Shown here: piece after piece, positions 2,728-56,784 of the stretch | Layout: each line of letters begins with the position of its first letter | How positions within the stretch are numbered: the first letter of the stretch is position 1 | Assembly: GCA_002307275.1 (NCBI GenBank) | Contig: DBTX01000072.1 | Location: 57,454-121,453, forward strand | Length of the DNA stretch: 64,000 nucleotides | Direction of reading: 5' to 3' | Origin: Hungateiclostridiaceae bacterium UBA1305 | GTDB lineage: Bacteria > Bacillota > Clostridia > Acetivibrionales > DTU013 | Made by a program: the position numbers and the translations under genes | Notes under the pieces: generated by a model | Told to the model about the DNA's origin: nothing | What the model saw: the letters and a program-made list of their open reading frames with translations, nothing else | Database searches by the model: none

Positions 2728-3198
2728 ATGGCAATCAGGAACATCAGGAAAGACGGCGATGAAATATTAAGAAAGAAATCAAAAGAAGTTGATGCAATAA
2801 ATGATAAAATACGTATTTTGTTGCAGGATATGGCTGATACTCTATACAAGGCTGAAGGAGTCGGTTTGGCCGCACCGCAGGTAGGCGTGCTTAAAAGGGT
2901 CGTGGTCATTGATGTGGGAGAAGGGCTGCTCGAACTTGTGAATCCGGTATTCCGGAGCCAATCAGGACAACAGGTTACGACGGAAGGCTGCCTTAGCGTT
3001 CCCGGAGTTTGGGGGGAATTGAATCGACCTTCTCATGTGGTTGTTGAAGCTCATAACGGGAAGGGAGAAAAGGTCGTTATCGAAGGGGAGGGCCTTCTGG
3101 CAACGGCGCTCTGCCACGAACTCGACCACCTTGAAGGAATATTGTTCAAGGATAAGGCGATACGAATCCTTGACCCTGAAGATTTAAAGGGAGAGTAA
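2728..3198 (+). CDS. def: Peptide deformylase
   Basis: Motifs [18 protein letters not shown] and HELDHLEG. The ATG at 2728 is preceded by GGAGGG. The ORF-track start at 2680 has no RBS. Confidence 0.92.
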
Positions 3199-46022: not shown

Positions 46023-46085
46023 GGCGCTTGCTGCAGACTTGATTTGATACAGACAGTTTTAAGAGGTGACAGGCGGAGGAAAGGT

Positions 46086-47339
46086 ATGGCAATTTTCAGA
46101 GATTATGATCCTGGCAGCGGTGATCGTTCTGCCGAGGACCGGCGAAGACACAAGGAACTCGTTGAGGGATCCATAAAAAAGAATATTGGAAACATCATTG
46201 CAGAAGAAAGCATCATCGGACAAAGCGGGAATAAAAAAATAAAGATCCCGATCCGGGGCATCAGAGAATATAGTTTCATATACGGGAAAAACACGAAGGG
46301 GGCGGCTTCCGGTGACGGAGATGAAAAGCGCGGCGATGTGGCCGGGGAAGACCTTGAGGGGAAAAACACCGGGACGGGAGGAGCGGGGGACAAGGAAGGC
46401 GAAGATATCTACGAGACTGAAATAACCATTGAAGAGCTTGTGAATTATCTGTTTGATGATCTAAAACTTCCCGATATAGACCGAAAAAAGCTTTCAGATC
46501 TCGAGTCGGAGAAGAGCTTCAGAAAGCTGGGGTATCAGAAAAAAGGCATACCCCCGCGGCTGGCAAAAAGAAGATCAGCTGTGGAAAAAATAAAACGAAG
46601 GCAAATGTACCAGAGGAGTTTGGATGAGTTGAACGGAGTGAACCGAGACAACTTGAAGGAGGATGAGCCGGAACATTTCCCAATTGCAGGGGATGAACCG
46701 GAGCAATTCCCAGTTGCAGAGGATAAGCCGGAACGTTTTCCTTTTACGGAGGATGATCTTCGATACCGACGGCTTAAAGAGACGCACAGGAAGGATTTCA
46801 ATGCGGTAGTCCTCTGTATCATGGATGTTTCCGGCTCGATGGATCAGACGAAGAAATATATGGCCCGGAGTTTTTATTTTCTGCTGTATCAGTTTTTGAG
46901 GCTCAGGTATGCCCATATAGAAATCGTTTTTATTGCTCATACCACAACAGCAAAAGAGGTGGGAGAGCTTGAATTCTTCCACAAGGGAGAGTCGGGAGGT
47001 ACTTATATCAGCAGCGGCTACGAAAAGGCCCTCGAAATCATTGAACAGCGTTACAACCCAGCCAACTGGAATATTTACGCTTTCCACTGCAGTGATGGGG
47101 ATAATTGGACGGAAGACAACAAAAAGGCGGTAGAGCTTGCTGCAAGATTGTGTGAGGTATGCAACCTGTTTGGCTACGGGGAGATCGTACCCGGCTATTA
47201 TTATGCCGGCAGTACGGTGAAGTCAGAATATCTCAAGAATATAAGTGCGGATAATTTCGTTATTGTTACCATAACAAAGAAAGATGATATTGTAGCCGGG
47301 CTGAAACGCCTTCTTGAAAAAGACGGCGAAGGTTTGTAA
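46086..47339 (+). CDS. yhbH: YhbH/YeaH (DUF444) sporulation protein with vWA-like domain
   Basis: MAIFRDYDPGSGDRSAEDRRRH start and DVSGSM MIDAS-like motif. Follows prkA. Confidence 0.88.
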   Translation: MAIFRDYDPGSGDRSAEDRRRHKELVEGSIKKNIGNIIAEESIIGQSGNKKIKIPIRGIREYSFIYGKNTKGAASGDGDEKRGDVAGEDLEGKNTGTGGAGDKEGEDIYETEITIEELVNYLFDDLKLPDIDRKKLSDLESEKSFRKLGYQKKGIPPRLAKRRSAVEKIKRRQMYQRSLDELNGVNRDNLKEDEPEHFPIAGDEPEQFPVAEDKPERFPFTEDDLRYRRLKETHRKDFNAVVLCIMDVSGSMDQTKKYMARSFYFLLYQFLRLRYAHIEIVFIAHTTTAKEVGELEFFHKGESGGTYISSGYEKALEIIEQRYNPANWNIYAFHCSDGDNWTEDNKKAVELAARLCEVCNLFGYGEIVPGYYYAGSTVKSEYLKNISADNFVIVTITKKDDIVAGLKRLLEKDGEGL

Positions 47340-47409
47340 ATTCACTGTATATGTTGCAAAAAGCAAAAAGATTTGCAGAAGGAATGAATTCATCGAAAAG
47401 GGGCTGAAG

Positions 47410-48801
47410 ATGTCGGATTACAGCATAAGTGAACTTGAGAAATGGAATAGATGCATTGAAGAAAAAGCGCTTGTGAAGGGAATGAATTTTTATGAACAGG
47501 AATTTGAACTGGTCAGTTACGAATCAATGACTTCCTATGAAGCCTATACCGGAATGCCTTCGCATTATCCGCACTGGAGTTTTGGAAAGGCCTATGAGAG
47601 GATCAGAACGCTCAACAGGTATAATCTGTCGGGTCTACCCTATGAAATGGTTATCAACTCCAACCCCTGCATTGCCTATCTGATGAAGGACAACACGCTG
47701 CTGCTCCAATTGCTGACGATGGCACATGTATATGGGCACAACGATTTCTTTAAAAATAACAGGTTGTTCAAAGCAGGCACAAGAGCTGAACATACCATAG
47801 AGCTCTTTAAAAATCACGCCGGTCGGATCAGGTCCTATATTAGTGATCCAAGCATCGGTTACGAAAAAGTGGAGAAGATGATCAATGCCGCACATGCGCT
47901 TCGGTACCAATGCGCGAGGACCATTGGCGAAAAGAGGCTGGAAGCGGAGGAGTTAAAAAGACGCATGCAGGAAGGAAACAAAAAGAGTGACAGTGATTTT
48001 CCGCTGCTTGATCTGCAAGAACACAAATACAGTGATGTACCTGATCTGAAGAGAATACCGCTGCAACCCGAGGAAGACCTGCTGGGATTTGTGGCAGCAT
48101 ACAGCAGGCATGAGGAATGGGAACGCGATATTATTGATATTATTCGTGAGGAAACGCTTTATTTCATACCGCAGATCGAGACAAAGATCATGAATGAGGG
48201 CTGGGCAAGCTACTGGCACTATTCTTTGCTAAATAGTCTGGAACTGCCGCAGCAGCTTCACTTTGAGTTTTTGCGGAGGCATAACCAGGTGGTTAGGAAT
48301 CATGAAGGCAGTATTAACCCCTATTACCTGGGGTTTAAGATATTTGAGGATATTAAAGCGAAATATCCCGGCAATCCGTCTATGCTTTTCGAGGTAAGGG
48401 AGATTGAACGGGACGCTTCTTTCATAAGAAGGTACCTGTCCAAAGAACTCTGCAATGAAATGAACCTTTATGAATATGAAAAGGACGGAAATGAGTATGT
48501 GGTTTCCGAAGTGCCGGATGATGATGGCTGGATGAAAATAAGAGATACGCTCGCAGCTTCGACCGGCATGGGAGGCATCCCCTGCATCAGGGTGACTGAC
48601 TTTATGCAGAAAGAGAACACCTTGTTGCTTGAGCATGTTTATGACGGAAGAGAGCTGGAATTGAATTATGCAAATGAAACACTCAGACATATGGTCGATT
48701 TGTGGGAAGGGAAAATAATCATGAACACCATTGTTGAAGGCCGGAAAAGATCCGTCGTTTGCGATGAACAGAAGAAAATTACTCTGATTAACGCAGGATG
48801 A
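47410..48801 (+). CDS. spoVR: Stage V sporulation protein R
   Basis: SpoVR pattern (HYPHWSFGK, NEGWASYWH). ATG at 47410. Confidence 0.9.
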   Translation: MSDYSISELEKWNRCIEEKALVKGMNFYEQEFELVSYESMTSYEAYTGMPSHYPHWSFGKAYERIRTLNRYNLSGLPYEMVINSNPCIAYLMKDNTLLLQLLTMAHVYGHNDFFKNNRLFKAGTRAEHTIELFKNHAGRIRSYISDPSIGYEKVEKMINAAHALRYQCARTIGEKRLEAEELKRRMQEGNKKSDSDFPLLDLQEHKYSDVPDLKRIPLQPEEDLLGFVAAYSRHEEWERDIIDIIREETLYFIPQIETKIMNEGWASYWHYSLLNSLELPQQLHFEFLRRHNQVVRNHEGSINPYYLGFKIFEDIKAKYPGNPSMLFEVREIERDASFIRRYLSKELCNEMNLYEYEKDGNEYVVSEVPDDDGWMKIRDTLAASTGMGGIPCIRVTDFMQKENTLLLEHVYDGRELELNYANETLRHMVDLWEGKIIMNTIVEGRKRSVVCDEQKKITLINAG

Positions 48802-48907: not shown

Positions 48908-48982
48908 GGGGGATTAACTCAGTGGGAGAGTGCTACCTTCACACGGTAGAAGTCATTGGTTCGAACCCAATATTCCCCACCA
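48908..48982 (+). tRNA. tRNA-Val (anticodon CAC), CCA encoded
   Basis: Hand-folded cloverleaf: acceptor GGGGGAT/ATTCCCC, D stem ACTC/GAGT, anticodon stem CTACC/GGTAG with loop TTCACAC, T arm ATTGG-TTCGAAC-CCAAT. Confidence 0.9.
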
Positions 48983-49101: not shown

Positions 49102-50106
49102 ATGAAAAAATTGTTGATCTTTTTAGCACTGGTTACGATACTGAACGGCTGTGCTTCAAAGCCGGCCTCTGTAGACGGAGACTCAACAGAGGCAGCGGTT
49201 TCCGGTATCGGAAGTTCCGATTCGAATAATAAGCAAAGCATTTCTAAAACACTGGATGGAGAAATCAAGTTCTTTCCTACCTATGATGAGAAGTACAAGA
49301 CCGGAAGCAACGAAATGTATGATTTCTGGTTCGACATCCCCAATGAATGGAAAGCGGCGGATCAATCGGCGGACGGTTCGGAATACACCATTTTTACTGA
49401 TAATGATAAAGTCCTGATAAAAATTTCCGGTGAGATGATAACTGAGCCTGAAGATGAATATTATACCAAACTTGCCGGTAATAGCGGTACGATAACCGAC
49501 TTTACCTACAGGGACGGTTGGGTCGGAAAGAAGATCGGTGTCAGTGGGACCGAGACCTGGTATGTTCGCGTTGACGGTGACAGCTACATGGCACTTCATA
49601 TCAATGCTGCGGATCAAACTGAATGGTTGAAGCAAAATGAGGAGAAGCTTAGCTATGTGGCTATGAGCGAAAGAACTACCAAAGAAAGCTATGGGAAAGG
49701 CATGGATGGCGAGAACTCCGTGACGCTTGATGACCTTCAGTTTGGAAGTGTTAAGCTTGATATGTCATATGATGAATTAATGAAGGTGCTAAAGCAAAAA
49801 CCGGATAAAGAGGAAAAGGAGGAATATGAGGGATTGGAAGCCAGGACTTTGTTCTTTGCAGACAACACCCAAATATATGTGGTTGACGGCGCCGTGTATT
49901 CGATAAACGTTACAAGTCCGGGTTATGTCACACCAAGGGGGTTGAAGGTGGGGGACTCCACGGACAGGCTTATTGAACTTTATGGGGAACCGGACAGCAA
50001 GGAAGACGAAAATCATTGGGGATATAACTATAATGGCTATGAAGTATTTACTATAATCGTTGAAGATGGAAAAGTGAAGGAAATGCAAGTTGATCTTGTA
50101 ATGTAA
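49102..50106 (+). CDS. Lipoprotein of unknown function
   Basis: Signal peptide with lipobox LVTILNG|C. No recognisable catalytic motif. Confidence 0.55.
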   Translation: MKKLLIFLALVTILNGCASKPASVDGDSTEAAVSGIGSSDSNNKQSISKTLDGEIKFFPTYDEKYKTGSNEMYDFWFDIPNEWKAADQSADGSEYTIFTDNDKVLIKISGEMITEPEDEYYTKLAGNSGTITDFTYRDGWVGKKIGVSGTETWYVRVDGDSYMALHINAADQTEWLKQNEEKLSYVAMSERTTKESYGKGMDGENSVTLDDLQFGSVKLDMSYDELMKVLKQKPDKEEKEEYEGLEARTLFFADNTQIYVVDGAVYSINVTSPGYVTPRGLKVGDSTDRLIELYGEPDSKEDENHWGYNYNGYEVFTIIVEDGKVKEMQVDLVM

Positions 50107-50118
50107 AAGGAGAAGTAT

Positions 50119-50955
50119 ATGGATATGGTTACATATGATTTGGGAAAGATTCAGGAAGCAGCCGATTTTATTAAAACTAAAATAGGCAGCAAACCGCAGA
50201 TCGGAATAATCCTCGGATCCGGACTCGGATCGCTGGTAAATGCACTCGAACATCCACTTGAAGTAGACTACAGCGATATCCCGGGATTTCCTCAGACCAC
50301 CGTTCCAGGGCATGCGGGCAAGCTGGTCTTTGGAATGCTTGGAGGAAAATATGTGCTTGTGATGAAAGGACGCTTTCATTTTTATGAAGGATATAATATT
50401 TCACAAGTGGTTTTCCATATCAGAGTATTCAAGCTTCTGGGGATAGACAATCTGCTTGTTACAAATGCGGCAGGAGGTATAAACACAGCCTTCAAACCCG
50501 GTGATCTTATGATTATCACAGATCATATCAGCTTATTTGCTCCATCGCCTTTACGCGGTAAGAACTTTGAGATGTTCGGAACAAGATTTCCGGATATGTG
50601 CGGCGTTTACAACAGCTGCCTGATTGAAACAGCAAGGGAAGCGGCACAGGAAGAGGGAATCGGGCTGAAGGAAGGGGTTTATTCGTTTGCACAGGGGCCA
50701 ATGTTTGAGACGCCTGCAGAGATACGCGCACTAAGAATAATGGGGGCTGATGCGGTTGGAATGTCGACAGTGCCGGAGGTGATTACCGCAAGGCATTCGG
50801 GAATGAAAATCATGGGGATTTCCTGCATTACAAACATGGCAGCGGGAGTTCCGGGACAACCGCCAAATCATAAAGAGGTAATGGACACGGCAAAGCAGGT
50901 GGAGAAGAAGTTTGCCATGCTTGTCACAAGGATTGTTTCCAAGTGGTCTGTGTAG
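50119..50955 (+). CDS. punA: Purine nucleoside phosphorylase (PunA/PNP-I type)
   Basis: GRFHFYEGY, VGMSTVPEV and NMAAG motifs. Confidence 0.88.
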   Translation: MDMVTYDLGKIQEAADFIKTKIGSKPQIGIILGSGLGSLVNALEHPLEVDYSDIPGFPQTTVPGHAGKLVFGMLGGKYVLVMKGRFHFYEGYNISQVVFHIRVFKLLGIDNLLVTNAAGGINTAFKPGDLMIITDHISLFAPSPLRGKNFEMFGTRFPDMCGVYNSCLIETAREAAQEEGIGLKEGVYSFAQGPMFETPAEIRALRIMGADAVGMSTVPEVITARHSGMKIMGISCITNMAAGVPGQPPNHKEVMDTAKQVEKKFAMLVTRIVSKWSV

Positions 50956-51088
50956 AAGTCTGACCGAAAACTACTGTACAAAGACTCCTTGCCGACAGTT
51001 TAAATCCAGCTGCAGGACGGAGAACCACTATAAATGAATATAAACATAATAAAGACGTATATGAAATGAATATAATTGAAATTGATTG

Positions 51089-51117
51089 TTGATAATGTTA
51101 TTGGATTGGTATATAAT
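51089..51117 (+). promoter_or_regulatory. Sigma-A-type promoter (TTGATA-17-TATAAT) upstream of the HTH-methyltransferase gene
   Basis: TTGATA at 51089-51094, TATAAT at 51112-51117. Confidence 0.5.
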
Positions 51118-51199
51118 AGCAGTAGCAACAATTTTTTTTTATAGCTAATAAAGAAGAACCTTACGAAATCTTTTTACAACATGTATGGGAGAAATTGGT

Positions 51200-52000
51200 A
51201 TGGATAAAGAGATCCTTAATATGGAAGAGGCGGCTGAGTTTTTTAATGTCAGCATAAAGACTTTCATAAAGCTGCTGAAGGAAGAAAAGGTTCCGGCCAG
51301 GAAAATAGGCAGAGAATGGCGTTTCACAAGGCAAGCGCTTATTCAGTGGCTTTCGGCCGGCGATTCGCAGCAATATTCATCCAGTGACAGCGATACAAAG
51401 GAGTTTTTCGACAGGGTGGCACCGGAATGGGAAAGTATGCGGGATGGTTACTACGACGATTCGGTGATTCGTAGCCTGCTCGAAACAAAGCTTCTCAAGA
51501 GTGATATGACACTTGTTGATCTTGGTGCGGGTGACGGTTATCTTTCCCGTGCTGTCGCGTCACAGGTGGATAAGGTGATCGCTGTTGATATTTCCGGAGA
51601 AATGTTGAAGGAACTCAACAAGAAAGCGGCTCAGGATGGGCTTGATAACATCCGGACGATCATAGCTGATGGCTGTGACCTGCCTTTGGAGGATGAGAGC
51701 GTGGATTTAGTATGCGCTAATATGTTTCTTCATCATATTGAAGAACCTGCACTTGCCATCAGAGAAATACGCAGAGTGCTGAAACGTGGCGGCAAGGTGT
51801 TTCTGGCGGATTTGAAGGAACACGGCAACAGGGAGTTCAAGGAAAGGATGCATGACGCCTGGCAGGGATTTTCCCAGAATGAGATCAAGGAATGGTTTAC
51901 CAAATGCGGATTCAGAAATATTTCGCTGGATATGTCAAGTAAAAAAGCTGCATTAAAAAAGAATGATGATGGCATATTTACTATGACAGCTGAAAAGTGA
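51200..52000 (+). CDS. Excisionase/MerR-type HTH fused to a class I SAM-dependent methyltransferase domain
   Basis: N-terminus LNMEEAAEFFNVSIKTFIKLLKEEKVPARKIGREWRFTRQALIQWL (HTH_17 type). MTase motif I LVDLGAGDGYLS, and post-I/II motifs. Confidence 0.7.
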   Translation: MDKEILNMEEAAEFFNVSIKTFIKLLKEEKVPARKIGREWRFTRQALIQWLSAGDSQQYSSSDSDTKEFFDRVAPEWESMRDGYYDDSVIRSLLETKLLKSDMTLVDLGAGDGYLSRAVASQVDKVIAVDISGEMLKELNKKAAQDGLDNIRTIIADGCDLPLEDESVDLVCANMFLHHIEEPALAIREIRRVLKRGGKVFLADLKEHGNREFKERMHDAWQGFSQNEIKEWFTKCGFRNISLDMSSKKAALKKNDDGIFTMTAEK

Positions 52001-52003
52001 AGG

Positions 52004-52058
52004 AAATGCGGACCAAATGCGGACTAAATGAGTATTAAATGCGGACCAGATGATAGAT
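52004..52058. repeat. 11-bp tandem repeat AAATGCGGACC, about 5 units (3 conserved, 2 degenerate)
   Basis: Units are 52004-14 aaatgcggacc, 52015-25 aaatgcggact, 52026-36 aaatgagtatt, 52037-47 aaatgcggacc and 52048-58 agatgatagat. Confidence 0.9.
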
Positions 52059-52096
52059 AAGCAATGAATCACAGTAATCATAAGGAGTGCGAATGA

Positions 52097-53044
52097 ATGG
52101 GCAGGATAATTGTTGCGGGATCGATCGCTTTTGATCACATCATGGATTTTCCGGGTTATTTCGGTGATCAGATCATACCGGAGAAGATCAGTGAGCTGAA
52201 TATCAGCTTTCTGGTGAAAAGTTTGAAGAAAGTAAAGGGAGGAACCGCTCCGAATATTTCATACAGCCTTGCGCTGACTGGGCAGAAACCCGAGGTGCTG
52301 GGAACTGTAGGGAGCGATTTCGAGGATTACAGGAAATGGCTTGAGGGAAACGGTGTCGGGACGAACCTGATCAGAGTGAAGGAGGATGATTTCACGGCAT
52401 CCTGTTTTATTAATACTGATCTTGCAAATAATCAGATAACCGGATTTTATCCGGGCGCCATGGCTTTTGATCCGGAAATCAGCATGCATGACATTCAGAT
52501 GGAGGATGTGTCAATGGTGGTGATTGCACCGACTGAGCCTGCTGCGATGAGTAAATGGACTAATGAATTGCAGGAAATCGGGGTACCATATCTGTATGAT
52601 TCGGGAATGCAGATACCCAGAATGTCTGCACAGGATCTTGTGCAGGGTGTAATGGGAGCCACAATTGCAATTTTCAATGAATATGAATATGAAATGATGC
52701 TTAAAAAAACGGGCTTGAAAATTGAGGAGATATTGGAAACGGTTGAGCTTATAGTTGTAACCATGGGCGAAAAGGGTTCCTTCCTCAGAAACCGGACGGA
52801 AAGTGTGCAGGTTCCTGCAGCAAAGCCAATTGCTATCGTCGATCCCACCGGAGCGGGAGATGCCTACAGAGCAGGGCTGCTGAAGGGATATTTCGAAGGC
52901 GGCGGTCTCGAACGCATGGGGCAATATGCGAGTGTAACGGCAGTATATGCGGTTGAACATAAGGGCGCTACAGAACATAGCTATACTATTGAAGAATTTT
53001 ACAATAGATACAAAGAAAATTTTGGAGGATTAGAAGAATGGTAA
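52097..53044 (+). CDS. PfkB-family carbohydrate/nucleoside kinase (adenosine-kinase-like by context)
   Basis: GGTAPN and DPTGAGDAYRAG motifs. 7-nt overlap with ahcY. Confidence 0.75.
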   Translation: MGRIIVAGSIAFDHIMDFPGYFGDQIIPEKISELNISFLVKSLKKVKGGTAPNISYSLALTGQKPEVLGTVGSDFEDYRKWLEGNGVGTNLIRVKEDDFTASCFINTDLANNQITGFYPGAMAFDPEISMHDIQMEDVSMVVIAPTEPAAMSKWTNELQEIGVPYLYDSGMQIPRMSAQDLVQGVMGATIAIFNEYEYEMMLKKTGLKIEEILETVELIVVTMGEKGSFLRNRTESVQVPAAKPIAIVDPTGAGDAYRAGLLKGYFEGGGLERMGQYASVTAVYAVEHKGATEHSYTIEEFYNRYKENFGGLEEW

Positions 53045-54300
53045 AGTGTGATATCAAGGACAAATCCCTGGCACCAAAAGGGAAATTAAGGATCGAATGG
53101 GCAGACAATCAGATGCCGGTTTTGAAAATGATCAGGGAAAGATTCGCAAAGGAAAAACCGTTAGCCGGCAAGAAAATGTCATGTTGTCTGCATGTCACAA
53201 CAGAGACCGCGAACTTGATCAGGACGTTGAAGGAAGGCGGCGCAGACATCGTACTATGTGCTTCCAACCCGCTGTCAACGCAGGATGATGTTGCAGCATC
53301 ACTGGTTATGGATTACGGCGTTCCAGTATACGCGATCAAGGGCGAGGACAGGGATACTTACTACAAGCACCTGCTGGCTGCCATTGAACACGGCCCGGAC
53401 ATGACGCAGGATGATGGCTGCGATCTTGTAGGTTTGTTGCACAAGAACTACAGTGATACTTATCTGAAAAACGTGATCGGCGGTACCGAAGAGACCACCA
53501 CCGGTGTCATTCGCCTCAAGAGCATGGAAAAGGATAATGCACTGAAGATCCCTATCGTTGCGGTAAATGAGTCGGATACGAAGCATTTGTTCGACAACAG
53601 GTACGGGACAGGGCAAAGCACGCTGGACGGCTTGTTGAGAGCGACAAATATTCTGCTCGCGGGAAAGAACTTTGTCGTATGCGGCTATGGCTGGTGCGGC
53701 AAGGGACTTGCCATGAGAGCAAAGGGCATGGGCGCCAATGTTACAGTTACTGAAGTGGATCCGATCAAAGCGATTGAGGCTGTTATGGAAGGTTTCCGGG
53801 TAATGAAGCTGGAAGATGCCATGAGCATTGCCGATATCATCATCACAGTGACAGGTGACCTGAATGTTATCGATGAAAAGCATATCAAGCTTGCCAAGGA
53901 TGGCGTCGTAATAGCGAATTCAGGACATTTTAACGATGAAATCAACATCACTGCAATTGATGCTTTGTCGGCTTCAAAAAGAACTGTACGCGATTTTGTC
54001 GAGGAATATACGATGAAGGATGGCCGTATGCTGTTCCTGCTGGCGGAAGGCAGGCTGTTGAACCTGTCGGCTGCAGAGGGACATCCGGCAGTCGTTATGG
54101 ATATGAGCTTTGCAAATCAAGCACTGGGCGCTGAATATATTGTCAGGAATGCCGGTACAATGGATAGCAAGGTATATCTGCTGCCTGTAGAGGTGGATCA
54201 GGAAATCGCAAGGCTGAAGCTGGCATCCATGGGCATATCCATAGATGTTCTGACAGAGGAGCAGGTTACCTACCTTTCATCGTGGCAGAGCGGAACCTGA
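53038..54300 (+). CDS. ahcY: Adenosylhomocysteinase (short ~420-aa form)
   Basis: HVTTETA, GYGWCGKG NAD motif, LAEGRLLNL. Confidence 0.92.
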   Translation: MVKCDIKDKSLAPKGKLRIEWADNQMPVLKMIRERFAKEKPLAGKKMSCCLHVTTETANLIRTLKEGGADIVLCASNPLSTQDDVAASLVMDYGVPVYAIKGEDRDTYYKHLLAAIEHGPDMTQDDGCDLVGLLHKNYSDTYLKNVIGGTEETTTGVIRLKSMEKDNALKIPIVAVNESDTKHLFDNRYGTGQSTLDGLLRATNILLAGKNFVVCGYGWCGKGLAMRAKGMGANVTVTEVDPIKAIEAVMEGFRVMKLEDAMSIADIIITVTGDLNVIDEKHIKLAKDGVVIANSGHFNDEINITAIDALSASKRTVRDFVEEYTMKDGRMLFLLAEGRLLNLSAAEGHPAVVMDMSFANQALGAEYIVRNAGTMDSKVYLLPVEVDQEIARLKLASMGISIDVLTEEQVTYLSSWQSGT

Positions 54301-54368: not shown

Positions 54369-55682
54369 ATGAACATTCTTATTGAAGGGATTGATATTTT
54401 AACCGCGGACCCGACATCAGAATATAAAAGAAATGCAGACATTGGAATCATCAATGGAATCATTTCTTTTATAACGCCATCCGGCAGGATTCCTCCGGAA
54501 TTTAAGGCTGACAAGAAGCTTAGCGGCTTGAAAAAGCTTGCCATGCCCGGGCTTGTCAATGCGCATACACACTGCGGCATGACAGCCATGAGAAATTCAG
54601 CAGATGATTTGTCTTTACAGAAATGGCTTTTTGAAAGGATATTTCCGATTGAAGAAAAAATGACGGATGAGGATGTGTACTGGAGTACGCTGCTTGGTGC
54701 TGCAGAAATGATCAGATCCGGCACTACAGCCTTTGCGGACATGTATCTGCACATGGATCATGCTGCTGAAGCTGTCTGTGAAACAGGTCTGCGTGCAAAT
54801 CTGTCAAGAAGTCCGATTGATTTCCATAACGATGGTGGTTTGAAAGCAGTTGATGCATTTGATAAATGCAGAGACTATTTCAGAAATTGGAATGGAAATG
54901 CTGAGGATAAAATCAAGGTATATGTTGAAGTTCATTCCACCTATCTGATGGACATTGAGTCCCTAAAAAAGGCAGCTGATCTTGCGGCAGAGCTTCGAAC
55001 GGGGATCCATATCCATTTGCTTGAGACGGCAAGTGAGAGAAAGGATAGCCTGGAGAAGTATGGAAAGTCACCGGTTGAGATTTGCAAAGACACAGGCATT
55101 TTTAATGTGCCTGTGATAGGGGCGCATCTGGTACATGTTTCCGGGGATGACATCAATATACTTGGTGCAGCCGGGGTCAATGCAATTCACAATCCGACAA
55201 GCAACCTGAAGCTCGGAAGCGGGATTTCTCCAGTGCCTGCACTGCTTGATGCCGGAATCAACGTTGCACTTGGCACAGATGGAGTAGCAAGTAACAATAA
55301 CCTTAACATGTTCGAAGAAATGCACCTTGCCGCTCTGATCCACAAGGGAGTCGCTCAGAATCCGGAGTTGGTCACCGCCAGACAGGCATTCAGGATGGCG
55401 ACTGTAAATGGTGCAAAAGCGCTGGGCTTTGGAAATGATACAGGTATGATAAAAGTGGGAATGAAAGCTGATATCATCCTGCTGGACATCGACAAGCCGC
55501 ACCTTCACCCGATGAATGATCCTCATTCGGCAGTTGTATACTCAGCTCAAGGCGCCGATGTTCACACAGTTATCGTGAATGGTGCTATTCTTATGGAAAA
55601 CCGTGAGCTTAAAACCATTGATGAGGAAAAGGTTAAATTCAAAGTGAATTCCATCTCTGAGAGACTTTTTGATGTTTTGTAA
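54369..55682 (+). CDS. mtaD: 5-methylthioadenosine/S-adenosylhomocysteine deaminase (amidohydrolase)
   Basis: VNAHTHCGMT (HxH), HLLET, GTDGVASNN. Confidence 0.85.
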   Translation: MNILIEGIDILTADPTSEYKRNADIGIINGIISFITPSGRIPPEFKADKKLSGLKKLAMPGLVNAHTHCGMTAMRNSADDLSLQKWLFERIFPIEEKMTDEDVYWSTLLGAAEMIRSGTTAFADMYLHMDHAAEAVCETGLRANLSRSPIDFHNDGGLKAVDAFDKCRDYFRNWNGNAEDKIKVYVEVHSTYLMDIESLKKAADLAAELRTGIHIHLLETASERKDSLEKYGKSPVEICKDTGIFNVPVIGAHLVHVSGDDINILGAAGVNAIHNPTSNLKLGSGISPVPALLDAGINVALGTDGVASNNNLNMFEEMHLAALIHKGVAQNPELVTARQAFRMATVNGAKALGFGNDTGMIKVGMKADIILLDIDKPHLHPMNDPHSAVVYSAQGADVHTVIVNGAILMENRELKTIDEEKVKFKVNSISERLFDVL

Positions 55683-55789: not shown

Positions 55790-55865
55790 GCCAATTTGGC
55801 TCAGTCGGTAGAGCAGCTCATTCGTAATGAGCAGGTCGCCGGTTCGATTCCGGCAATTGGCTCCA
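55790..55865 (+). tRNA. tRNA-Thr (anticodon CGT), CCA encoded
   Basis: Acceptor GCCAATT/AATTGGC, anticodon stem GCTCA/TGAGC with loop TTCGTAA, T arm GCCGG-TTCGATT-CCGGC. Confidence 0.92.
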
Positions 55866-55898
55866 AACAAAACCCTACAGGCTCTAGGCTTGCAGGGT
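55834..55898 (+). repeat. attL-like 65-bp direct repeat (tRNA-Thr 3' 32 nt plus 33 nt downstream)
   Basis: ggtcgccggttcgattccggcaattggctccaaacaaaaccCtacaggctctaggcttGcagggt. Confidence 0.9.
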
Positions 55899-55957
55899 TT
55901 TTGCTTTTCCTGATAAATTAGCAAATTATTCAATTCTGGCGCTTATTTGGCGCTTAT

Positions 55958-56279
55958 TTAATTTTTTAATGAACTGGACTTCTTGAATACGGTCTGCATT
56001 GCCGGATTATTTGATATAAGTTTCAGCTTATAGGCCCGGGCAAAAACCGATTGAATAACTGCATGTATTTTCTTTACGGATGCACTGCTGAGATAATCAC
56101 CTTTACCGTCCTTCCTCTGACCTGGTCCCTGAAGATCAGATATAAACCGCTGGACATTTAGCGGTTTAATCTCACTTAGCTTGTAGTTGCCAAGTGCTGG
56201 GGGTATCCTTTGCTCTATTGTCTTTTTATAAAGCTGTGATTTCATAAGTGTTTTCGCCCTTTTTACGGATGTTGGACAT
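55958..56279 (-). pseudogene. Tyrosine recombinase/integrase remnant (N-terminal parts only)
   Basis: MSNIRKKGENTYEITAL* (from 56279), then a frame-shifted SAM-like core-binding segment ..IPPALGNYKLSEIKPLNVQRFISDL... The catalytic domain is absent: only ~60 nt remain before attL. Confidence 0.7.
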
Positions 56280-56362
56280 GATTATTCACTCTCCTTTTTT
56301 ATTAAAAAAACTAAAACATTTGCACCTAATTGTGGTATTATAATTATAAAGGAGTTGATTAT

Positions 56363-56563
56363 ATGTCTCCTAAAATGCATTCTAAGCGGTTAACAGCGGT
56401 AAAGTTTGCTAATGCCGTGAACAAAATAGAAGGTGTCCCAGTTACAAATCAAGCGAAAAAGCTCTCAGCTCAGTGGGCACGAGGGGAGATTTCGGGCTCT
56501 GCGATGAAAGCTGTGCTTATCGCAAAGCATAAACGTTCGGTGACAGATACACATCATGAATGA
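56363..56563 (+). CDS. VbhA-like antitoxin (Fic inhibitor family)
   Basis: MSPKMHSKRLTAVKFANAVNKIEGVPVT... with the ..IEG.. inhibitory-helix pattern. RBS AAAGGAG. The stop overlaps the fic remnant start. Confidence 0.6.
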   Translation: MSPKMHSKRLTAVKFANAVNKIEGVPVTNQAKKLSAQWARGEISGSAMKAVLIAKHKRSVTDTHHE

Positions 56564-56784
56564 TCCTTATCTTTATGAGGGAAGTTCTGTTTTACGCAAT
56601 CTGTTGAATATCCATGACGAAAAGGAATTGGATTTAGCCGAGGCCGAACTCTCACGAGCCAACATGATGTTGCTGTACGAGCAGGGCTTTGTGGATTTTT
56701 CTACTCAGGGGGATCAAGACAATTCATAAGGTCTTATTCGAGGATGTGTACGATTGGGCCGGAGAATTTCGTATTAACTATTAA
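56556..56784 (+). pseudogene. fic toxin remnant (frameshift in a G5 run, 3' part deleted)
   Basis: MNDPYLYEGSSVLRNLLNIHDEKELDLAEAELSRANMMLLYEQGF.. then a +1 shift at 56708-56712 to ..GIKTIHKVLFEDVYDWAGEFRI. The HPFxxGNGR core is missing. Confidence 0.65.

Follow-up and report, generated by a model that had tools for sequence, protein, structure and literature searches.

S-Adenosylhomocysteine (SAH) is a potent product inhibitor of essentially all S-adenosylmethionine (SAM)-dependent methyltransferases, and cells must sense and remove it. The known sensors of SAH are the SAH riboswitch, SahR of Proteobacteria and McbR of Corynebacterium. A literature search found no described regulator of ahcY, the SAH hydrolase gene, for cellulolytic Clostridia of the Acetivibrionales/Hungateiclostridiaceae type. 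How, then, might these bacteria control SAH recycling? The question is raised by a gene at positions 51200-52000 (+ strand) of a 64,000-nucleotide stretch of Hungateiclostridiaceae bacterium UBA1305 (contig DBTX01000072.1, positions 57,454 to 121,453), which we refer to as the window. The gene encodes a helix-turn-helix (HTH) domain joined to a methyltransferase-like domain, and an original prediction made from the DNA letters had proposed that it is a SAM/SAH-sensing regulator analogous to SahR. On the evidence given below, we consider it probable that the fusion protein is a one-component, autoregulating and SAH-responsive transcription factor of the operon fusion gene-kinase-ahcY-mtaD. This provides a candidate regulator, a candidate operator and a local regulon for ahcY in the Acetivibrionales/Hungateiclostridiaceae-type Clostridia.

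The longest open reading frame (ORF) of the fusion gene spans 51185 to 52000 on the + strand and encodes 271 amino acids (aa). Its true start is most likely the ATG at 51200 (MDKEIL..., 266 aa), because nearly all homologues begin at MDKEIL and a candidate ribosome-binding site, GGGAGA (51187-51192, + strand, read directly from the sequence), lies 8 nt ahead of this codon. The two-domain architecture that had been proposed, an excisionase/MerR-type HTH fused to a class I SAM-binding fold, was borne out by Pfam, which places HTH_17 at residues 11-58 (E = 5e-11) and Methyltransf_11 at residues 111-206 (E = 3.5e-26) of the 271-aa ORF. The N-terminus also scores above the NCBIfam cut-off for the TIGR01764 'excisionase family DNA-binding' domain, while none of the NCBIfam methyltransferase equivalogs reaches its cut-off, the BioC, UbiE, ArsM and DVU_1556-type models falling far below. 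In the 266-aa numbering the protein consists of the HTH (about 6-53), a conserved Ser-rich linker (54-67) and a class I SAM/SAH-binding fold (68-266). Motif I, LVDLGAGDGYLS, is present, as are the other peptides quoted in the original prediction, and the class I methyltransferase features include VDLGAGDG (the GxGxG of motif I), the invariant D in AVDIS at the end of beta-2 and an invariant LHH motif. A DNA methyltransferase reading was rejected, since the domain is Methyltransf_11 and carries no DPPY-type motif IV.

The full-length AlphaFold2 (AF2) model agrees with this map. It has a mean pLDDT (predicted local distance difference test) of 79.8, and shows the HTH as a beta-alpha-alpha-beta-beta-alpha winged helix, linker residues 59-67 as low-confidence or disordered, and the methyltransferase fold as class I with pLDDT above 90. 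An AF2 model of the HTH only, built from the single sequence, gave two long helices and was discarded as it conflicts with the winged-helix topology of the full-length model. Foldseek searches with the full model matched generic class I methyltransferases only (E about 1e-14), and no solved structure of the whole fusion was found. Public annotation names the homologues 'excisionase family DNA binding protein' or 'methyltransferase domain-containing protein', and a literature search for an HTH_17-methyltransferase fusion found no publication describing it.

The fusion family is sizeable but phylogenetically compact, and belongs to one clade of Clostridia. A word-index search returned 562 matches, the top 120 of which are at least 61% identical and all share the same two domains. 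Relatives are encoded in 242 species-representative genomes; the named hosts include Pseudobacteroides, Acetivibrio, Herbivorax, Ruminiclostridium and Thermoclostridium, together with many metagenome-assembled genomes labelled Bacillota or Oscillospiraceae. An exhaustive search of 1.84 billion representatives at 50% identity found the whole fusion in only about four clusters.

In the window, the fusion gene stands immediately upstream of the kinase, ahcY and mtaD genes, as had been stated. The first of these (52097-53044, + strand) encodes a PfkB-family kinase (Pfam PfkB, 4.6e-40), probably an adenosine or nucleoside kinase and a predicted member of the operon; its best NCBIfam match, 'nucleoside kinase', is under that model's cut-off. 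The start of ahcY (53038-54300, + strand; TIGR00936, 615 bits against a cut-off of 498 bits) overlaps the end of the kinase gene. It is followed by a gene for an MtaD-like amidohydrolase (54369-55682, + strand; Pfam Amidohydro_1, 5.9e-70) of the adenosine, methylthioadenosine (MTA), SAH or 5'-deoxyadenosine deaminase type, for which the NCBIfam deaminase and chlorohydrolase models all score under their cut-offs. A promoter/terminator scan found no terminator-like site between the fusion gene and the genes downstream of it, and a tRNA-Thr gene and a terminator come after the mtaD-like gene. Upstream of the fusion gene lies a gene for an inosine/guanosine-type purine nucleoside phosphorylase (PNP; 50119-50955, + strand; NF006054, 379 bits, above cut-off), which is separately terminated in the window and stands inside the operator-controlled operon in some relatives.

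This arrangement is conserved well beyond the window. Homologues of the window's neighbouring genes were located in 80 fetched loci, and the 72 with at least 1.5 kb of downstream sequence were judged. SAH/adenosine-salvage genes adjoin the fusion gene in 70 of these 72 species-level loci. AhcY itself is adjacent in 58, despite changes of gene order: in 51 it follows the fusion gene on the same strand, either at once or with the kinase in between, and in seven a second AhcY type, about 50% identical to that of the window, lies directly upstream. A further 12 loci have the kinase and/or the MtaD-like gene without AhcY, and the remaining two have none of the three, a Uma2 protein or a HAD hydrolase following the fusion gene instead. 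The kinase is present downstream in 29 of the 72 loci, MtaD in 45, and PNP upstream in 34 of 66. The association with SAH salvage thus holds even where the kinase, mtaD or PNP has been gained or lost. A survey of co-occurrence with ahcY and mtaD, which had been proposed as a check on the regulatory idea, is therefore strongly positive, with the refinement that ahcY is the usual partner and the constant one is the SAH/adenosine-salvage set.

The association also reaches distant members of the family, since a 45%-identical member in a GC-rich complete genome lies directly behind ahcY. The most divergent full-length fusion, the paralogue P0124 (42% identity; L126 211-3942 and L127 954-4685), presents the one clear case of a different target operon. 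It precedes genes for a LeuC-like aconitase, a LeuD-like small subunit and an isopropylmalate/isocitrate dehydrogenase-like (LeuB-like) protein, and may, as a paralogous regulator, control another regulon and possibly respond to another ligand.

In a subset of genomes (loci L047, L048, L058, L059, L063, L076-L079, L081, L100 and L121), the second AhcY type is found upstream of the fusion gene, often as a PNP-ahcY2 pair. The combination of this AhcY with an MtaD-like deaminase and an inosine-type PNP suggests, by analogy, a deaminated route in which it would act like an S-inosylhomocysteine hydrolase. A route of this kind has been described in methanogens.

The region upstream of the fusion gene contains both a promoter and an array that we regard as its putative operator. 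The promoter scan identified a sigma-70-type promoter, TTGATA-17 nt-TATAAT (51089-51117, + strand), which matches the consensus at 11 of 12 positions and places the predicted transcription start near 51124; the same TTGATA-17-TATAAT promoter is conserved in about 55 loci. Directly repeated sequences had been noted on both sides of the gene, at 51032-51075 and 52004-52058, as possible operators. Both sets exist, and it is the upstream one that forms part of a conserved array at the promoter; the downstream set is not conserved. The upstream pair consists of TAAATGAATATAAA at 51031-51044 and GAAATGAATATAAT at 51063-51076, with Tandem Repeats Finder (TRF) reporting a period of 10 over 51029-51080. 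From the repeats, column conservation and a weight matrix, we delimit the putative operator as a phased array of TG-N4-TAA-type units at 51031-51097 (+ strand). Its units on this strand are TGAATATAA at 51034-51042 and again at 51066-51074, TGAAATTGA at 51076-51084 and TGTTGATAA at 51087-51095, the last overlapping the -35 box. When 55 loci were anchored on the conserved promoter, G was conserved at -53, -32, -21, -11 and -1 relative to the -35 hexamer, with TAA four bases after each. The array therefore has a period of 10-11 bp, its conserved positions are phased TG and TAA and not generic A-tracts, and it extends to about -90 relative to the predicted transcription start.

The array is specific as well as conserved. 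A weight matrix was built on the 34 bp that precede the -35 box, leaving out the hexamer itself; it gives 32.1 bits at 51055-51088, and the next best score anywhere in the window is 13.0. With leave-one-out matrices, a site of at least 15 bits is present within 450 nt upstream of the fusion gene in 54 of 78 loci, while the remaining 1.6 Mb of strand that was scanned holds only nine others that reach this threshold, or 0.056 per 10 kb. Of these nine, four precede PNP or ahcY genes ahead of the fusion gene (L048, L059, L063 and L077). Two operator-promoters are present in one contig in L063, before ahcY and before fusion-mtaD, and likewise in the metagenomic contig L100, before PNP-ahcY and before fusion-mtaD; the operator stands ahead of PNP-ahcY in L048, L081 and L100. 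Detached ahcY units with the array were seen only in genomes carrying the fusion. As to further regulon members, the weight matrix found no additional site in the window, and a metagenome scan for the operator together with the -35 box found only fusion-gene or PNP-ahcY promoters, plus chance matches without a -10 box. The promoter of P0124 (TTGACA-17-TATAAT) is also abutted by a phased array, of GAAnATAA; since this paralogue keeps a phased array despite its different operon, the array travels with the regulator gene. With salvage genes adjoining the fusion gene in nearly all loci and an operator-like array that is both conserved and specific, a regulator tied to SAH recycling, as was first suggested, is very probable.

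What might the C-terminal half sense? Outside the fusion family, the best-matching proteins align with residues of about 60-250 only and are 31-42% identical. The architectures among the 150 nearest representatives at 50% identity include stand-alone proteins of about 210 aa, tandem methyltransferases, fusions to PNPOx or C_GCAxxG domains and, in 47 cases, ArsR-type HTH_5 fusions of 300-350 aa. Genomic context was examined for three of the ArsR-methyltransferase fusions: one lies directly upstream of AdoHcyase, and two lie directly upstream of a B12-dependent methionine synthase gene (metH). By BLASTP, the window protein is 37% identical over 201 aa to the ahcY-linked one (E = 3e-41), in an alignment that spans the sensor domain from its N-terminal helix to its last strand, and 33% identical to a metH-linked one (E = 4e-39). 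SahR is an ArsR-family, SAH-responsive and autoregulated repressor of ahcY, metH and metK, encoded by a gene of 1023 nt (PMC4239095; PMC8877191; see also 10.1101/803072 for its role as a repressor). An ArsR-methyltransferase fusion beside ahcY or metH, which are core genes of the SahR regulon, has the SahR architecture. The link to SahR thus runs through SahR-like proteins identified by architecture and context, and not via an experimentally characterised SahR. From the full-length homology of the sensor we conclude that the sensor module is common to the fusion and the SahR-like proteins, so that the 'convergent solution' put forward in the original prediction does not hold for this half.

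The analogy with SahR, therefore, stands in part. Like SahR and its relative SamR, the fusion is a one-component protein with an N-terminal winged HTH and a C-terminal class I methyltransferase-like domain, encoded next to its presumed targets; ahcY, a core target of SahR, would be one of the fusion too, and the fusion is probably autoregulated, as SahR is. The different HTH class that had been remarked upon is real: the HTH belongs to HTH_17 and has no HTH_5 or HTH_20 match, whereas the ArsR-type relatives do match HTH_5. The operator type also differs, the 20-bp palindrome of SahR (PMC4239095) contrasting with a direct-repeat array of 10-11-bp period which overlaps the -35 box. The regulon appears to be local (ahcY, an adenosine-type kinase, an MtaD-like deaminase and sometimes PNP), the host is a clade of Clostridia, and neither metK nor metH nor metF was seen to be linked to the fusion in the loci and contigs scanned. 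Lacking the ArsR HTH and the palindromic operator, the fusion is not SahR in the strict sense, but most likely works like SahR, whose sensor module it shares.

The descent of the sensor half was also considered. A neighbour-joining tree of 138 methyltransferase domains did not separate sisterhood of the HTH_17 fusions to the ArsR fusions from sisterhood to stand-alone enzymes, and the sequences are compatible with either a domain swap from SahR or an independent recruitment from the same subfamily. The signature residues (GxGxG, D after beta-2, LHH-P, D-x-x-EH and HDxWxGF) do not differ between stand-alone, tandem, ArsR-fused and HTH_17-fused members. Cysteine counts for the Cys-rich C-terminal loop, considered as a discriminator of sensors from enzymes, were taken on domain envelopes that truncate this loop. 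In the alignment of the 138 domains, position 69 (266-aa numbering, the first F of EFFDRVA) is Phe in the HTH-fused classes (HTH_17 0.88, ArsR 0.68) and Tyr in stand-alone, tandem and other members (0.72-0.86); as a weak indication, it might mark sensor versus enzyme members.

Turning to the DNA-binding half, members of the family share a mean pairwise identity of 0.90 in the HTH and of 0.63 in the methyltransferase-like half, and a near-invariant HTH fits a conserved operator. Among PDB sequences, the HTH was matched over its full length only by the BldC-DNA complexes 6AMA and 6AMK, and weakly (E = 1.2). BldC, a Streptomyces developmental regulator, is itself a Pfam HTH_17 protein (3e-13), and its multimers, which are cooperative, arranged head-to-tail and variable in length, bind direct repeats of AATT-N4-C with about 9-10 bp for each protomer (PMC5859096). 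Read on the bottom strand, the operator unit is WTTA-N4-C, and the base-contacting K26 and R30 of BldC align with invariant lysines of the fusion family. Since HTH_17 membership is common to both, as are sites of tandem direct repeats in which an AT-rich stretch and a G-C pair recur at about each helical turn, with a 10-11-bp period in the case of the fusion, we infer by analogy that the fusion HTH may bind in a BldC-like, head-to-tail manner along one face of the DNA. In contrast to BldC, a stand-alone domain of 68 residues with no effector, the fusion protein adds a methyltransferase-like domain of 200 residues. The HTH_17/TIGR01764 winged helix is also shared with excisionases and recombination directionality factors. 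Among these, lambda Xis, TorI and RdfS-type factors oligomerise on phased direct repeats. Unlike the excisionase genes, the fusion gene has no recombinase, attachment site or mobile element around it and belongs to a conserved chromosomal metabolic operon.

Based on these comparisons, it seems reasonable to propose how the system would operate. The HTH_17 winged helix would bind the TG-N4-TAA direct repeats that run into the -35 hexamer, several protomers lining up head-to-tail along one DNA face as BldC does, while the C-terminal domain would bind SAM and/or SAH. The bound repressor would occlude the promoter, and accumulation of SAH, that is, a low SAM/SAH ratio, would release repression and so induce the SAH hydrolase, the adenosine-removing kinase and the deaminase. 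AhcY would then split SAH, and the kinase and/or deaminase, with PNP in some genomes, would remove the adenosine or inosine. Removal of adenosine or inosine pulls the reversible AhcY reaction forward. In purpose, namely the induction of SAH recycling, this resembles the SAH/SAM riboswitches on ahcY and SAM-cycle genes (PMC4239095), from which it differs in that control is predicted to be protein-based. Rfam gave no match at gathering thresholds over the whole window and none at E <= 1 over 50900-52150; with no Rfam family in the leader or spacer, control by a riboswitch or leader RNA was rejected.

The sign of regulation is the part of this proposal most directly opposed by an alternative. The protein could instead be an activator, its SAH-bound form sitting on the array at the -35 box and recruiting RNA polymerase in a class II-like manner, so that the operon is switched on when SAH rises. 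The position of the array, upstream of and abutting the -35 box and reaching to about -90, is typical of an activator, and BldC-type proteins activate as well as repress (PMC5859096). Against this, the promoter is already near consensus and is conserved in about 55 loci; promoters that depend on an activator tend to have a poor -35 box. The -35 hexamer itself falls within the last repeat unit, and SahR is a repressor. Because of the near-consensus promoter and the overlap of the last unit with the -35 box, we favour repression by occlusion, and consider an activator unlikely. More improbable still is that the protein is a trigger enzyme, an active small-molecule methyltransferase whose catalytic state controls DNA binding or, in the extreme form, an enzyme with a DNA-tethering domain whose operon disposes of its own SAH. 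All SAM-binding and signature residues are kept as in the stand-alone members, the nearest structures are active methyltransferases, and the sensor half is no closer to the ArsR fusions than to the stand-alone relatives. Yet a single methyltransferase needs no dedicated SAH-recycling operon; the HTH, not the enzyme-like domain, is the most conserved part; a specific operator accompanies the fusion gene; the ArsR fusions keep the same residues and nevertheless adjoin SahR-regulon genes; and the stand-alone relative P0132 has no link to SAH genes.

The operator could also be questioned. An AT-rich array positioned where UP elements lie might be a general, UP-like promoter feature or the site of another global regulator, with the fusion as a syntenic passenger of unrelated function, and its tie to the fusion protein rests on co-localisation. 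We regard this as very improbable: the array is all but missing from the other 1.6 Mb of strand scanned in the same genomes, where promoters are plentiful, and from the rest of the window; it follows the fusion gene into the different operon of P0124; where it precedes a detached ahcY unit, the genome carries the fusion as well; and its TG and TAA positions are phased and do not form generic A-tracts.

Several points nevertheless weigh against SAH-responsive repression by the fusion protein. All of the loci come from one Clostridia clade, so that part of the synteny is inherited. The operator falls below the 15-bit threshold in 24 of the 78 loci, mostly the more divergent ones, and as it is assigned to the fusion by co-localisation, another factor could bind it. 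The sequence match to BldC is not significant by itself. The closeness of the stand-alone methyltransferases counts here too, and judging from its sequence the methyltransferase-like domain could be catalytically active; we know of no universal catalytic residue in the Methyltransf_11 subfamily. Finally, the sign of regulation and the choice of SAH over SAM are argued from promoter quality, site position and the analogy with SahR.

The comparison also shows a single sensor module, derived from a methyltransferase, on two unrelated DNA-binding domains whose operators differ in geometry. A sensor module on two HTH types lends itself well to studying the transfer of a ligand signal to different DNA-binding outputs. 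The linker offers a speculative link between the two halves of the fusion: GDSQxYSSS, which is predicted to be disordered, is more conserved than is usual for such a segment and lies directly before the helix that caps the cofactor pocket, and it would be a plausible route for ligand control of HTH oligomerisation. As a tentative extension, in which we have distinctly less confidence than in the regulator itself, the fusion may be the first effector-responsive regulator of the BldC type (HTH_17, head-to-tail and filament-forming), whose sensor would control cooperative polymerisation of the HTH along the phased repeats over the -35 box through the Ser/Tyr-rich linker; the filament length, in place of a dimer that is either bound or not, would then read the SAM/SAH ratio, and the same sensor subfamily would have been joined independently to ArsR and to HTH_17. 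Were the BldC-like mode true, the recently defined BldC class would extend, possibly for the first time, to ligand-controlled regulators. A further use of the regulator with its operator-promoter could be to switch expression in Clostridia in response to SAH or to SAM/SAH.

The promoter region contains one further element. An inverted repeat with arms at about 51084-51103 and 51114-51133, followed by T9 (51084-51141, + strand), is predicted to fold in RNA with -14.4 kcal/mol (z = -2.3), and both promoter boxes, -35 and -10, lie within it. It probably serves as the intrinsic terminator for the PNP transcript, nested in the fusion-gene promoter, and may also have a role as an attenuator. A hairpin and T-run at or just after the fusion promoter was seen in many loci (for example L001, L002, L009, L010, L012, L014, L017, L023 and L039), mostly where PNP is the upstream gene; the stem sequences vary among loci and the arrangement is kept.

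The downstream repeat lies in the spacer between the fusion and kinase genes and consists of 4.5 copies of the 11-nt unit AAATGCGGACC (52004-52052, + strand; TRF score 56). It was not found in about 60 homologous loci, where the spacer is often 17-40 nt, and as a lineage-specific feature without counterpart there it was rejected as a conserved operator. One of the upstream operator units shares 86% identity with the third unit of this repeat (TAAATGAGTATTAA), and AAATG recurs in 11-bp phase in every unit of the repeat. The sole related case is a 16-nt array, six copies of GACCAAATGATATNCA, in the 5' leader of the fusion gene of L019 (about 3060-3170). The downstream repeat could provide an additional binding array in this lineage, or could simply be a microsatellite.

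Beyond the operon, the tRNA-Thr(CGT) gene occupies 55790-55865. It is followed on the opposite strand by a 95-aa fragment holding only the N-terminal SAM-like domain of a phage integrase (55958-56245), which lies outside the operon and was judged unrelated to the fusion gene. A VbhA-type antitoxin gene (56330-56563) and a short ORF resembling a truncated Fic N-terminus (56556-56729, no Pfam match) come next, and the region 55790-56729 is probably the decayed edge of an element integrated at tRNA-Thr.

On the other side, the sporulation-associated genes for DUF444 (YhbH-like; 46044-47339) and SpoVR (47314-48801) precede a tRNA-Val(CAC) gene (48908-48982) with promoter-like and terminator-like sequences of its own. 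Between this and PNP, positions 49102-50106 encode a predicted lipoprotein of 334 aa (a signal peptide followed by Cys) without a Pfam match, whose gene ends 12 nt from the PNP start and is kept upstream of PNP in most related loci (36-76% identity). The gene order SpoVR-lipoprotein-PNP-fusion gene is likewise kept in many related loci.

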